Positions 5,859 through 63,311 of a stretch of 64,000 bases of DNA are shown here, piece after piece. The translations under genes were made by a program, and so were the position numbers. Position 1 is the first letter of the stretch. Every line of letters starts with the position of its first letter. The stretch is from Okamejei kenojei (Eukaryota). Under the pieces are notes generated by a model. That model made no database searches. It was given only the letters and a program-made list of their open reading frames with translations, and was not told where the DNA came from. The DNA lies in assembly GCA_035221665.1 (NCBI GenBank), contig CM069145.1, positions 15,500,001 to 15,564,000 on the forward strand. Direction: 5' to 3'.

Positions 5859-8800
5859 ACATGTTGTTGGGGGACCGAGGGAGGAAAACCATAGTGCTGG
5901 GTGCTGGGGACAGTGTTGGGGGTGGTGAACGCAGCAATCCCCACATTGGGTTTCTCGTCTGGTGCACCATTCCACTCATTTCTCAAACCAATAAGTGGAA
6001 CTCGTTATAACATCCTTCACACACTGCCCAGAATAGTCCAAAGGACGCTGTTTCATGTCTTACATGAGGCTTTTGCCTGCCACAGAACTTTTCTGCGTGT
6101 CTATCATTGGCTCAGGGAGAGAAAGCCACGGTTGTGGCAGATTGTGCCCCTCAGCTTTGGTTCTCAAGCCCATTTCTAATCAGAGGCTCTTAGACAAACA
6201 TATTTACATCTCGGTTGTGTAATTTTGCTTGCATTGAGTTTCAGGCATGTTTTTATTAAAGTAATCATTCTTATCAGTTATTCTATTGAAAATGTTAATA
6301 TTCTCAGGGATACCTGTGTATCATACCATGCAAAAGTTGGTATTCAAGTTTGTACCTGCAGATCCTCACCATGAATCTCAGCCATTGATGTTCTGCGGAC
6401 AACAGGACAGAACCCTAAGAATGAGCCAACTAGGCAGATACAGAGCCTCAGTGTCGGAGGCGGGATAGATTCTTCATCTTCCTCTCAAGCATGCCATATT
6501 GTGCAGTAGACCTAAGAAATAGATGAACTACTTATTTTGTTTTATAATAGTAAAAATGACAGATAAAATCGCATGGTGTTCATGTCAAGATGGAAATGCA
6601 GTACTCCAAGGGTTAACAGGAAAGCCTTACAACACATAATCAAAGCTTGACCTCAGGTTAGTTAAGGGGCAATACAATGTAGGGGAGGGGGTGGGATTGG
6701 TAAGGTCTAGTATCTAATAATAAACTAGCAGTCGCTGTAGCAAATCTTGTGTAAAACTGTCTAATCTGATCTTGCCATGTGGTAATTTTCCAGATAAATG
6801 GACAGTCGGTTACACAGTTCCACTGTTCAAGGTCAATGATCCATATAATACAGACAATTACTGAGGTTTTTCATTGCCAGCTCTTTGGGGAAACTTTTTC
6901 ATCAAGTACTGAGCAACAGAAAATAAACATCCTATACAAAGGCAACTATCAATTAAAGAAAATCAAATTGATTGTTAATATATTGATAAGAAGTGCTAAA
7001 TTAAAACACAAAAGAAAGGTAAATATGTTAAGTATACATTTGTAGAAATTTAACATTTTTATGTTTCACTTTCTTCAAAACGTTTCAATGCTATTGAACA
7101 ACAGCTTGTTTTATTAATTACCAGGGCCTGAAATCAATAGCCAGCTCCATAATGCAATTAAAAACATAACAAAAGTCACCCTACGGTAAGATTTTAAAAT
7201 GAGTCACTGCAACACATCCTTAAGATTGATCCCTTGCAATTCACAACGTCACACATTATTTAAATGTGCTATCAATTACTATTAGACTTTATAAACTAAT
7301 AAAACCACAAGTGTTAGGAACTTTTAATTTAAATTGCTTCCTATATGCAAGTAAATGAATACACATTACCCCTAATAAAACAAGGATACATTCCTTGCAA
7401 TGGCATCATTGGTCTAATTTAATGAATAATACCCACTGATATAGTAAGTCATTATTGCTGCCACAAAGCTTTTGTTTTCAGAAACTACATTAACAACAAG
7501 TATCATGCAAAAATAATTTCATCAAATTACAGTTACATTTTTTCACTCTAGGAATGCCATGAAGGCACTAATTATACTGGAGAACTGTTAAAATGTATAT
7601 ATAATCATGCACTAGAGGCTGTCATATTTATCTCCTTAATATTATAAACTTGTAGGAAATAAAATTGGCCACAGATTCAGTATAGTGACAGGTTGGGAAC
7701 AAATATAATTGGCAATAAACATCCAGAATTTTTATTATTAAAATCAATATAAAAGCTTCCAGATATATATTTTTAAATCGGGCTTAAACTCCAAATGTGT
7801 AGGTTAAAATAGACACAGATAATCACACAATTGTAAATAATGTATCAAAATTTGCATATGCTTTTCAGTAATTTAACCTGAATTTCATTGTGATGATAAT
7901 CTAATTTGAAAAGTATGAGGGCTAAGTGTTTCTGTTTCCTTCCCATGGCTGTCAATTAAAGCAGAAGCAACAACATTCTAGTGCTAGATTTACAGAACAC
8001 AACTGACAAAACCCAAATGCATTATCTTTTTCATTTGTGTTAATTTTTTTCAAGTGATATTCCTCAATTTTTGCACCAGATCTATTTTATCTATTAATTT
8101 CCAAATGGGTGGAATTGCTGTTTTTGAGCCCTACTGTTGCTATAATAAAAAAAAAATCTAAATTGAACATTTGGTGGAAGTATTTTAATGCATTTAATGC
8201 AAATATGATATTTTGTCATTAGTGTCGGAGTAATTTCCAGCAGTGCTCAAATAAAGAATAAATTCTAAAATCTCTGTAATTCAATGCAGTTGTATTGGCA
8301 AGAACATCAGCAGCTGTCATAATTTCAAGTAATGCCAACAACATATGTATGTTTTCAGTGAGCAACTCTAGCTGTGTTGGTTGCATGATTGCAAACAGAA
8401 GTGGTAAAGATAGTGCTTGACAAAGTTAAACGATGTGGAAAGATAGAGTTTGGAGTTCATTTAAGAGTAATTTTTAATGGAGAAAATTGGGAGAATAAAA
8501 CAGGCAGAACTGATAAATTATGGTGATTAAAAAGTGAAGCAAATGAAGAAAGATGTATCAAGGGAATCAAATGAAAAGCCAAAGGAATGTAACACAAAGT
8601 TAGAGAATCTGCATTGGAGAATGAAAGAAAACAAAACAAATAGATTTTTTGGGGAATGAAAATGGAAGTACATAGACAGAAAATGCTGGCCCAATAAAAA
8701 AAAAGAAAGTCTAAACAACTACTCGCTCTCTTTATTGGGGGCCCATCTTGAAATTTGTCTAATCTCAAACAGGACAAAGGTCAGAGCGCTATAATCAGTC

Positions 8801-11432: not shown

Positions 11433-11643
11433 CCTTGCTTGCAGCAGTATCACAGGCACTTCGTTTCTGACAACACACAGAACAAACAAGACATCAGTGC
11501 AAGTCCAAAGTAGTGCAAGTCATGATCCGTAATGTTCAGTTGCTCAAGTAAGATTAGGGTTGTGCAGAATGGTTCACTAACTGATGGCCTGAGGAAAGTA
11601 GCTGTTTCTGACCCTGGTTTATTTTAGTTTAGTTTAGTTTAGA

Positions 11644-11697
11644 GGGGTGGAAGATTGCAACCTTCATGTGGTCCGCCCTGTTTCGACTAATGCAATT
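11644..11697 (+). ncRNA. HDV-like self-cleaving ribozyme (minimal nested double pseudoknot)
   Basis: P1 GGGGTGG (11644-50) / CCGCCCT (11673-79) with G1-U wobble; P2 (G)ATTGCA (11653/4-59) / TGCAAT(T) (11691-96/7); P3 ACC/GGT; L3 TTCATGT; mini-P4 with TTCG loop; J4/2 CTAA with putative catalytic C at 11687. Confidence 0.75.
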
Positions 11698-11785
11698 AAC
11701 TCGATGTGCACAAACAGAAGGTCAAATAGAACACGTTGTCCTACAACTTTAGGTTGTGCACGCCACACGAAAGAAGAAGAAGAAG
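11644..11785 (+). mobile_element. Short non-autonomous retroelement with HDV-like ribozyme head and (GAA)n tail (possibly Ingi/Vingi- or RTE-mobilised)
   Basis: TSD GTTTAGA(G) at 11637-11643/4 and 11786-11792/3; (AAG)n tail at ~11771-11785; structured 5' end. Confidence 0.8.
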
Positions 11786-12220
11786 GTTTAGAGATACAGC
11801 GCGGAAACAGGCGCTTTGGCCCACCGAGTCCGCACCAACCAGCAACCCCTGCGCATTAACACTACCCTACACACACTAGAGACAATTTACAATAATACCA
11901 AGCCAATTAACCTACAAACGTGTACGTCTTTGGAGTGTGGGAGGAAACCGAAGATCTCTGAGAAAATCCACGTGGTCAATGGGAGAACGTACAAACTCCG
12001 TACAGACAGCACCCGTAGCCAGGATCAAACCCGGGTCTCTAGCACTGCAAGAGCTGTAAGTTAGCAACTCTACCGCTGCTTCGCTGCCCACACCGTGATG
12101 TGGGACCTCAGGCCCAATTTTTACAATGAGAAGTGAGCATGGCGTGGATAGAAGGAATCCATAATGTTTTGAAATGACAATGATTGTTATTCGATGACAA
12201 TTCTGATAAATTTGATAAAT

Positions 12221-55679: not shown

Positions 55680-56084
55680 GTTAACAGAATTGAGAAAATT
55701 CAATGTTCAAGCCCAAAGGATGCAGACTCCCCAAGCGGAATATGAGGTGTTATTCCTCCAACTTGCAGTGTTGCTCACTCTGGCCGTGGAGGAGGCCCAG
55801 GACCGAGAGGTCGGATATACGGAATGGGAGGGGGAGTTGATGAGCTGAGCCACCGGGAGGTCGGGTTGGTTTTTGCGGACCGAGCGGAGGTGTTCGGCGA
55901 AACGATCGCCAAGCCTCCGCTTGGTCTCACCAATATAGATCATCTGGCATCTGGAGCAGCGGATGCAGTAGATGAGGTTGGAGGAGGTGCAGGTGAACCT
56001 CTGTCGGACCTGGAAGGACTGCTTGGGTCCCTGAAAGGAGTGGAGGGGGGAGGTGAAGGGACAAGTGTAGCATTTCTTGCGGTT
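55680..56084 (-). pseudogene. GIY-YIG endonuclease fragment of a Penelope-like element (frameshifted)
   Basis: NRKKCYTC...NLIYCIRCSRCQMIYIGETKRRLGDRFAEHLRSV: LIY...CxxC...YIG motif, conserved R and H, upstream Cys cluster. Frameshift near 55815; the frame continues with a premature stop into HLIFRLGSLHPLGLNIEF. Confidence 0.9.
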
Positions 56085-56091
56085 GACCAGT

Positions 56092-56119
56092 CTGAAGAAG
56101 GGTCTCGACCCGAAACGTC
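56092..56119 (+). ncRNA. Minimal type I hammerhead ribozyme motif
   Basis: CTGAAGA (56092-98) A GGGT-CTCG-ACCC GAAA (56112-15) CGTC (56116-19). Confidence 0.65.
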
Positions 56120-57367
56120 GCCTATCTCCTTCGCTCCTTAGATGCTGCTGCACCCGCTGAGTTTCTCCAGCCTTTTGTGTACCCTCGATTCTCCAGCATC
56201 TGCAGTTCCTTCTTTAACAATTGTATGAGAAGATTGTTCTTGCCATGAGGATTGACTGGTTTGTGCAGGGTAGCTGCTGCATGCAATGTGCATAAATTAT
56301 GACCAGACATTGTGGGTGGTCAGATTGGACCATTTCTGGAAAAACAATGCCAGTAGGAACAAGTGAGGAATAAGATAGGTAAAGTATCATGAATAACTGG
56401 TTGGGTGGTGAGTACGGAGCTCTTATTCACATCCACCATGGCCACCAGCCAAGCAGGACTAAATGCTGATGTGGTGTGACATCCCTTGCATTGATTTTAG
56501 CTCTTGGAGTATATAGTGTTGATTCGCTGCAGAAATACAGAACAAATAGCTGACTTAGAGTCATTTGTGAGCCCACATGGGGAAAGCACAACTGTAAAGC
56601 AGACTTGGAACAGTGAAAAAGAGTTAACTTTTTGTTTGGAGGATCTTTGTGCCAAAATCATGTCATATCCTTCCTCAGGTCTAGCATCTGTTCTATAGCA
56701 TGTAGTTTCCCTTAATGCACTCTAGCAGAAAGGACACCTGCCAAGACCCTCCCTAATCTCAAGTAATCTGGTGAGTCACCCACAGGCAAAGTGCGGGTGT
56801 ACACTCTAGGATTGTAGGTCTTCAGATACAGTGCATGTCAGTAAAACAAATTAACTGTTCATTTGTCATGCATAAATGGGACTCCAGAAAATGTGGAGCT
56901 GCATTTGAAAAACAGGGCAACCAATCTTTATGTTCTCGACACCAAATATTACCAAAATGGCATTGATATTGTACAAGAATGAACCTGTCAGCCTGATTTT
57001 CTTGAAGAGGACAAAATTAGCTGACAAACCTTTCTGTAATTTGCAAATGACGTCGTAAATTCATTCATATAAAGTAAAACGGATCGTTCGGGAAAAATCC
57101 TCGCACCAAATTGAATATGTTCCTGTGAATTATTGGAATGCGATCTTAATCAGAGCCACAACCATTCCCATTGGTGCTGGTGGGATAGGAAAGGAGTCCA
57201 TAACTCCTTCTTTCTTTCCAATCCCCGGTATTGGAATTTTTTCAAGATTAATTTTTGGGTGAGAATAGGATTGAATCTGACAAAAATGGCCCAGAGTGAA
57301 ATAATCTCATGAGAATCCCTGTCCATGTTCAAACATTAAATATTGACATTTTCAGTAAAGTAACAGA

Positions 57368-61881: not shown

Positions 61882-63311
61882 CAGTGCCCTCCATAATGTT
61901 TGGGACAAAGACCCATCATTTATCTATTTGCCTCTGTACTCCACAATTTGAGATTTGTAATAGAAAAAAATCACATTGTTAAAGTGCACATTGTTGGATT
62001 TTAATAAAGGGTATTTTTATACATTTTGGTTTCACCATGTAGAAATTACAGCAGTGTTTATACATATTCCCCCCATTTCAGGGCACCATAATGTTTGGGA
62101 CACAGCAATGTCATGTAAATGTTTAGCATTTTGTTGCATATCCTTTGCATGCAATGACTGCTTGAAGTCTGCGATTCATGGACATCACCAGTTGCTGGGT
62201 GTCTTCTCTGGTGATGCTCTGCCAGGCCTGCATTGCAGCCATCTTTAGCTTATGCTTGTTTTGGGGACTAGTCCCCTTCATTTGTCTCTTCAGCATATAA
62301 AAGGCATGCTCAATTGGGTTCAGATCGGGTGATTGACTTGGCCACTCAAGAATAGACCATTTTTTAGCTTTGAATAAACTCCTTTGTTGCTTTAGCAGTA
62401 TGTTTGGAATCATTGTCTTGCTATGGAATGAACTGCCGGCCAATGAGTTTTGAGGCATTTGTTTGAACTTGAGCAGATAGGATGTGTCTATACCCTTCAG
62501 AATTTATTATGCTACTACCATCAGCAGTTGTATCATCAATGAGGATAAGTGAGCCAGTACCTTCAGTAGCCATACATGCCCAGGCCGTAACACCCCCACC
62601 ACCATGTTTCACAGATGAGGTGGCATGCTTTGGATCTTGGGCAGTTCCTTCTCGCTTCCATTCTTTGCTCTTGCCATCACTCTGACATAAATTGATCTTC
62701 ATCTCATCTGTCGACAAAACCTTTTTCCAGAACTGTGGTTGCTCTTTTAAGTACTTCTTGGCAAACTATAACCTGGCCATCCTATTTTTGCGGCTAATTA
62801 GTAAGCTCACCAGTGCTCTGTTTCTTCTTAATGATGTTCCAAACAGTTGATTTTGGTAAGCCTGGGGTTTGGCTGATGTCTTTAACTGTTTTATTCTTGT
62901 TTCTCAGTCTCATAATGGCTTTAACTTTCATTAGCACAACTTTGGTCGTCATGTTGGTAAACAGCAATAAAAGTTTCCAAAGGTGATGGAAAGACTGGAG
63001 GAAAGACTAGGTGCTGAGAGCTCTCTTATACCTGCATTAAGGAAGCCATTAAACACACCTGAGCAATTACAAACACCTGTGAAGCCATGTGTCCCAAACA
63101 TTATGGTGCCCTGAAATGGGGGAGACTAGGTATCAACAATGCTGTAATTTCCACATGGTGAAACCAAAATGTATAAAAATGGCCTTTAATAAAATCTGAC
63201 TGTGCACTTTAACCACATGCGATTTTTTTCTATTACAAATCTCAAATTTTGCAATACAGAGGCAAATAAATAAATGATGGGTCTTTGTCCCAAACATTAG
63301 GGAGGGCACTG
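61882..63311 (-). mobile_element. Tc1-family DNA transposon (IR/DR type), defective transposase
   Basis: ~223-bp TIRs (61882-62104 and 63088-63311) starting CAGTGCCCTCC, with repeated CCATAATGTTTGGGAC; TA on the right flank (CA on the left). Frameshifted transposase with TDEMKINL, VKHGGGGVTAW, QDNDSKH and WPSQSPDLNPIEH (DDE) motifs. Confidence 0.95.

Follow-up and report, generated by a model that had tools for sequence, protein, structure and literature searches.

A short retroelement of Okamejei kenojei consists of the two joined ends of a Vingi-type LINE, and self-cleavage is predicted for its 54 leading bases, which would free the RNA from host transcripts; taken as a whole, we consider this account probable. 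The copy described here lies in the window, that is, the entire stretch of 64,000 nucleotides that was analyzed (contig CM069145.1, positions 15,500,001 to 15,564,000). Directly supported are the existence of the family, the sharing of both ends with the LINE family V6, the fixed 5′ start, the target duplications, and the conserved paired fold. The features at the locus are as follows:

11637–11643, plus strand: left target-site duplication, GTTTAGA (7 bp; 8 when the shared G is counted)
11644–11785, plus strand: the element, one copy of a dispersed family, 142 bases
11644–11697, plus strand: HDV-like fold without P4, putatively active
11644–11716, plus strand: region from the 5′ end of V6, the parent LINE (66/73 bases shared with the corresponding end of its copy L426)
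11717–11740, plus strand: short middle piece, its likely origin read from the series of subfamilies
11741–11770, plus strand: 3′ end of the parent LINE, comprising the last three codons (LQL), the stop TAG (11750–11752), and a short 3′ UTR
11771–11785, plus strand: (GAA)n tail, also present in V6 and in the remaining Vingi-type families
11786–11792, plus strand: right target-site duplication
11620–12089, minus strand: host repeat, a high-copy tRNA-type SINE with A-/B-box-like motifs

The first-pass annotation of this DNA had reported an insert of ∼142 bp, flanked by GTTTAGA duplications, ending in (GAA)n, and situated in the tail of a SINE. Both the insert (11637–11792) and its position were confirmed: the element sits in the simple-repeat tail of the minus-strand tRNA-type SINE, which we take to be V-SINE/HE1 by name. 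A search for tRNA genes found none between 11000 and 12500. Also as annotated, the element contains no complete polymerase III A or B box when scored against a general consensus; there is one B-box-like pentamer, TTCGA (11682–11686). The tRNA-, 7SL-, or 5S-derived head with A and B boxes that characterizes a classical SINE is therefore not present. The middle piece is composed of the tail of the parental 5′ part, a partial repeat thereof, and a few bases of unassigned source. Eight-base stretches in the 5′ part and in the 3′ UTR are complementary and close a long predicted hairpin (11705–11762); if the two ends of the LINE RNA paired in this way, the internal deletion might have been directed by it, but the core is palindromic and the pairing may be due to chance. 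Elsewhere in the window, the exons of an EBF/COE transcription-factor gene (26286–32520, plus strand) start ∼14.6 kb downstream of the element, and fragments of a GIY-YIG (Penelope-like) domain (55707–56213, minus strand) and of a DDE_3 (Tc1/mariner-like) domain (62123–62503, minus strand) were observed.

The search for further genomic copies that the annotation had proposed yielded thousands. In the 2.76-Gb genome, a DNA search gave 3,009 candidates, and exact patterns matched 3,081 heads and 3,536 3′ ends; a second head pattern, which carries the parent's base at position 32 and excludes the first pattern, matched another 1,041 times, the reversed controls being 0 in all cases. The copy number is thus at least 4,000, and a rough capture–recapture estimate (36 of 100 overlapping, among the places listed within the 50 Mb at the start of contig 1) is ∼7,700–8,600. 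Words of the element occur in sequence runs of eight organisms, and it is multi-copy in each of the four runs examined, which come from three organisms. When copies were chosen by their 3′ end, 27 of 30 started at G1 (28 if one copy split by a later insertion is included). Of 75 unique full-length copies, 61 had recognizable target duplications, with a median length of 12 bp, and these ended no more than two bases from G1 in 60 of the 61; the search succeeded for 47/52 true flank pairs versus 48/509 mismatched ones. This agrees with the annotated coincidence of the 5′ boundary with the predicted cut site and settles its ambiguity of one nucleotide, base 1 being G11644 (G in 74/74 copies scored). 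The 89 unique upstream flanks gave no sign of 5′ transduction: only two pairs were similar, and both were duplicated sites. The scarcity of G at position −1 was set aside, because microhomology of the shared G with the target accounts for it (the duplication overlaps G1 in 20/61 copies). The copies are dispersed, with duplications and tails of variable length, as are those of bipartite non-autonomous LINEs. Copies of subfamily A are 2.4–4.0% from the column majority at non-CpG sites, and the ribozyme part is no better conserved among copies than the rest (2.5% vs 2.4% non-CpG, n = 8), which is expected under neutral decay and lends no support to function.

The annotation had further proposed a non-autonomous family relying on a LINE, to be sought among Vingi, Ingi, or RTE elements sharing both ends, and such a LINE was identified. 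V6, a broken, single-ORF, RNase H-less family of Vingi type, came to light through two 3′ fragments in flanks and is represented by 743 candidates. The element corresponds to the first ∼73–82 bases of V6 joined to the ∼45 bases at its 3′ end, which hold the final codons, the stop, the 3′ UTR, and the GAA tail. At the 5′ end of V6, the region matching 11644–11716 (66/73) is followed by a short leader and then the endonuclease; the V6 frame closes with a Cys/His knuckle plus LQL-stop, and the V6 3′ ends match window positions 11741–11776 at an identity of at least 27/36 in 27 of 30 copies. Both ends were found on single V6 copies (L401 and L408; also L387 with L367), and the V6 head forms the same HDV-like fold, likewise without P4. 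Only 3 of 30 loci covering the V6 5′ region reach G1 exactly and about ten end 4–14 nt inside the ribozyme, whereas the short element almost always reaches G1. Copies of V6 ending 4–14 bases short include L399, L406, L408, L413, L414, L418, and L421, several of them beside inverted LINE sequence. V6 is probably quiet at present, because no intact copy was seen among the loci fetched; the element is ∼10-fold more numerous. Intermediates between parent and element exist, namely one subfamily with the parent's junction and bases, followed by subfamilies B and A, the latter having gained an extra U–G wobble and having two terminal-motif bases altered relative to V6. In addition, L437, L444, and L447 are independent short deletions with parent-like junctions. 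Judged by its sequence, the element is a bipartite non-autonomous LINE, that is, an internally deleted derivative, and neither a classical SINE nor a new kind of SINE.

Several other candidates were rejected. A search with PF20049 led to an RTE-like LINE with a GAA tail, the 3′ end of which is otherwise unlike that of the element; this LINE (L061–L090) terminates at its stop codon. A search with PF14529 retrieved Nimb/I-like and CR1-like elements only. L132, in the same genome as the element, is a Nimb/I-like LINE with an open frame of 1,276 aa and copies up to 99.7% alike, and apparently young. A parent with a longer P4 was also sought, but all 13 pattern matches were ordinary copies with small insertions or duplications. 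That the element carries the start of an ORF was not borne out either, as the only match to the corresponding pattern was an ordinary copy and LQL-stop is the end of the ORF.

HDV-like heads are not confined to V6. A loose head pattern run on metagenome contigs gave 120 loci (L171–L290), 64 of which represent one animal-type repeat with the same head register, a full P4, and direct continuation into a frame encoding APE and RT. This repeat is an abundant LINE of the Vingi type whose host is an animal. With its protein as the query, families V1–V5 were found in the same genome as the element, each with an HDV-like fold at its start and a short 3′ UTR plus GAA tail at its end. Thus, six Vingi-type families of this genome (V1–V6) and one metagenome family have HDV-like heads, and every family examined starts at G1 of P1. 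V1–V5 were ruled out as the parent; the 45-base 3′ end of the element is matched by V6 alone. V1 (L291, L293, L294, L296, and L306) is a young 3.2-kb LINE (0.3% non-CpG distance from the column majority), the head of which has a short P4 and may have a P1.1 of 2 bp, and is the best candidate for recent activity. V2–V5 are represented among L292–L340. At least six distinct families of this type thus occur side by side in one genome; V1–V6 are far apart in the RT tree and all have GAA tails. In V2, the P1.1 pair is U–A in place of C–G. The 3′ end of V5 (L321–L340) contains an 11-base stretch identical to head bases 7–17 in their G8 form, probably by chance. Further metagenome HDV-like heads, followed by different downstream sequence, are those of L175, L186, L193, L196, L201, L202, and L288.

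A passage of PMC13708176 describes Vingi elements as having a single ORF with APE and RT and without RNase H. The parent has this architecture: the pieces of V6 are collinear with P0008, and both P0008 and P0067 (the nearest intact relative) contain RT and APE, whereas RNase H is absent. An RT tree was built from 53 rows, one short V6 row (L411) having been left out; in it, V1–V6 and the metagenome family formed one clade (100/100) of RNase H-less proteins of ∼1,000 aa, separate from the rows with RNase H and from those that are Nimb-like, CR1-like, or RTE-like. V6 therefore fits Vingi, the clade name resting on architecture and on position in a tree with no named Vingi among its rows.

The geometry of the predicted ribozyme, all on the plus strand, is as follows:

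11644–11650/11673–11679: P1, with G1–U and one U–G wobble
11651–11652: J1/2, 2 nt (3 nt if P2 is taken as 6 bp)
11653–11659/11691–11697: P2, 7/7 bp paired
11660–11662/11670–11672: P3
11663–11669: L3, 7 nt
C11665–G11680: P1.1, 1 bp
11681–11686: loop of 6 nt in place of P4
11687–11690: J4/2, starting with the predicted catalytic C11687
5′ of G11644: predicted cut site

The helices P1, P2, P3, and P1.1 form a nested double pseudoknot in the canonical order (annotated for P1, P2, and P3), with the cut site taken at the first base of P1 (as defined in a passage of PMC4908430). The catalytic C is the first base of J4/2 and is followed by N-purine-A (definition in PMC10879173, in part); C is found in 73 of 77 copies at this column. 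Other details had to be revised. The P2 pairing ATTGCA/TGCAAT is present but extends to 7 bp rather than 6, and the supposed shrunken P4 is instead absent: six nucleotides separate P1.1 from the catalytic C, as in the minimal ribozymes of phages, and this spacing is common to element and parent. Of the two bases thought to reflect CpG decay, T11667 does so (C in 63/77 copies), and because of it the window copy fails a strict descriptor that 15 of 30 sampled copies pass. T11648 does not: T is found in 74 of 76 copies, and it is ancestral because position 5 is likewise T in the parent, with A as its partner; the U–G wobble thus arose on the opposite strand.

The pairing was evaluated in several ways. 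A loose HDV descriptor matched the window site once in the window and gave no match in 60 dinucleotide shuffles; the strict descriptor had none in 12.3 Mb of shuffled loci, and in 1.54 Mb of fetched loci every inspected match was at an element start. When the catalytic base was swapped, there were 116 matches for C, 20 for A, 3 for G, and 5 for T, which were not individually inspected and some of which, for A, may be the same sites in a shifted register. The annotation had suggested a test of covariation in P1, P2, and P3; compensatory changes across families were indeed found in all three and in P1.1. Among 11 natural heads, 99.2% of the cells in P1, P3, and P1.1 were paired, with two-sided changes in 6 of 11 pairs including P1.1; none of 500 shuffles equaled this and slid controls paired at 45–58%, although the rows are only partly independent, some having been chosen by descriptor or pattern, and related or preselected rows inflate the signal. 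In P2, six to seven of the seven pairs were formed in 8/8 heads of differing sequence. The stretch in the place of P4 varies from 6 to 44 nt across heads, and from 17 to 44 nt in the sister LINE heads.

The covariance-model scan that the annotation had also suggested was less favorable. With Rfam, no ribozyme matched in the window at E ≤ 10, and the V6/element heads L426 and L007 had no match at E ≤ 5. Below the gathering score, matches were obtained for the sister heads L198 (metagenome; CPEB3 model, E 1.8e-5) and L291 (V1; E 0.011), and for the phage head L428 (HDV-like, E 0.001). Plain folding of 11637–11793 was no better than that of shuffles (z 0.91), with a program that does not model pseudoknots. 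By analogy with another ribozyme, for which a passage of PMC4908430 reports little activity with a J1/2 spacer of 1 nt and only slow rates with 3–7 nt, the 2-nt J1/2 of the element would count against activity. Minimal ribozymes without P4 are active in vitro (PMC10879173, in part), and ribozyme-like motifs between tRNAs on five viral contigs agree with the element in L3 and in the 6-nt loop. Theta-like phage ribozymes between tRNA genes, with this same L3 and loop, were observed at L203 and L428–L432.

The main rival to cleavage as the source of the fixed 5′ end is an internal promoter for RNA polymerase II, located within the first ∼70 bases, with a ribozyme that is slow or vestigial in this element. 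The head of L1Tc/NARTc doubles as promoter and ribozyme (PMC3383444, in part), folding may be weakened here by the short J1/2, the missing P4, the 1-bp P1.1, and the extra U–G wobble of subfamily A, and many V6 copies end a few bases inside the head. However, pairing and catalytic C are kept while the primary sequence varies between families, which is a signal of structure and not of a promoter, and the start at G1 of P1 in every family also argues against this explanation. We consider it unlikely as the main cause, but a promoter could coexist with cleavage. A second alternative accepts the origin from V6 but has the youngest subfamily spread by V5 or V1, which share only the terminal motif and the GAA tail with the element. 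V5 (1.7% non-CpG distance) and V1 are younger than V6 (4.1%), subfamily A lies in between, and the two altered terminal-motif bases of this subfamily could be read in the same sense. On the other hand, V6 and the element overlap in age, the age samples are small and were picked by exact patterns, and the 45-base 3′ end matches V6 only; mobilization by V5 or V1 is hence improbable. That the element is a polymerase III SINE, with TTCGA as its B box and an incidental fold, is very improbable, since one pentamer stands against the lack of a full B box and an A box, and these bases lie among the first of a protein-coding LINE, in a segment replaced by longer stretches in sister families. Finally, chance pairing, to which the missing Rfam match and the unfavorable folding z-score might point, is hardly credible in view of the empty shuffles, the position of the inspected matches at element starts, and the covariation.

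The preferred account, self-cleavage followed by mobilization through V6, can be outlined as follows. A copy would be transcribed within a host or neighboring transcript, as known from the biology of non-LTR elements. The nested double pseudoknot would then fold and C11687 cleave the RNA 5′ of G11644. The protein of V6, with its APE endonuclease and reverse transcriptase, would recognize the last ∼45 bases and the GAA tail, and target-primed reverse transcription at a new site would leave a duplication of ∼12 bp abutting G1. Because the ribozyme lies entirely downstream of its own cut, every full-length copy inherits it, and the ∼10-fold excess over the parent would follow from the usually complete copying of a 142-base RNA.

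A broader interpretation, for which we see about equal grounds for acceptance and doubt, is that a minimal HDV-like ribozyme without P4 serves as the working 5′-processing head of a vertebrate retroposon of ∼8,000 copies, half of them with an intact fold; that such heads are general, though unreported, in Vingi LINEs; and that intact copies in sense orientation within host introns cleave pre-mRNAs and undergo purging or exaptation. It would give minimal HDV-like ribozymes, almost exclusively of phage origin in a 2024 survey, a eukaryotic home with a clear job, and would extend ribozyme heads to Vingi-type LINEs, with six families in one genome. It also bears on a question left open by Kojima, namely why few LINE clades spawn two-ended mini-elements, as an element that makes its own 5′ end can do without a promoter. 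Gene-writing tools are based on Vingi elements; in the passages available from a 2026 review, the driver RNA keeps its native 5′ UTR and HDV ribozymes are mentioned for R2 platforms only (5/5 passages). A ribozyme in the 5′ UTR of Vingi drivers, if true, would matter for the design of such tools. Moreover, with 15 of 30 sampled copies fold-intact, the thousands of variants that exist in nature constitute a ready mutational scan and make a test for strand bias in introns possible.

In its general design, the element resembles known systems. Bipartite non-autonomous LINEs have been reported for RTE, Ingi, Vingi, and R2, and ribozymes are listed for R1, R2, R4, RTE, Ingi, as well as LOA in parts of PMC5786205 (Kojima 2018); according to the same source, the Vingi-1_EE derivatives, RIME, NARTc, RTESINE, and Bov-A, like our element, combine the 5′ and 3′ ends of a LINE without an ORF. 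Ribozyme-headed non-autonomous elements are known as well (passages of PMC3414825, PMC3383444, PMC4035085, and PMC6765202): NARTc/SIDER of trypanosomatids and the R2 SIDEs of Drosophila likewise have an HDV-like ribozyme at base 1 and the 3′ end of a LINE. HDV-like ribozymes have been described in lamprey, lancelet, and sea urchin (PMC8256844, in part), so that one in a fish-like vertebrate is not new per se, and some of these cases may be Vingi heads. The parts of PMC9901934, PMC5753468, and PMC3391268 consulted held nothing decisive on the element. No description of the family was found in the literature searched, and it may be named in Repbase or Dfam; nor was a Vingi ribozyme, or a ribozyme without P4 in an animal retroelement, described in that literature. 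Thus, the element is a real and well-supported internal-deletion derivative of a Vingi-type LINE with a ribozyme-like head, a variant of a known design, and the apparently unreported features are the P4-less head and the ribozyme heads across Vingi-type LINEs. The element stands apart in several respects. L1TcRz has a P4 helix (PMC4035085, in part), which the element lacks; R2 SIDEs are confined to rDNA and termed rare in the passages available, whereas the element is scattered through an animal genome, with thousands of copies. It is the minimal delta-like (theta) ribozymes that come closest in structure, the fetched phage examples having no P4, an identical L3, and a matching 6-nt loop in the same register. 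According to parts of PMC10879173, nearly 99% of the minimal P4-less ribozymes are from Caudoviricetes, and none were found in eukaryotes in a search of human, mouse, and protist sequences. Theta ribozymes reside behind tRNAs in phages, whereas that of the element heads an animal retroelement with no adjacent tRNA and hence is not one of them. Because the sister LINE heads keep 17–44 nt in the place of P4, the simplest reading of the sequences is that P4 was lost convergently in the element and in the phage ribozymes.
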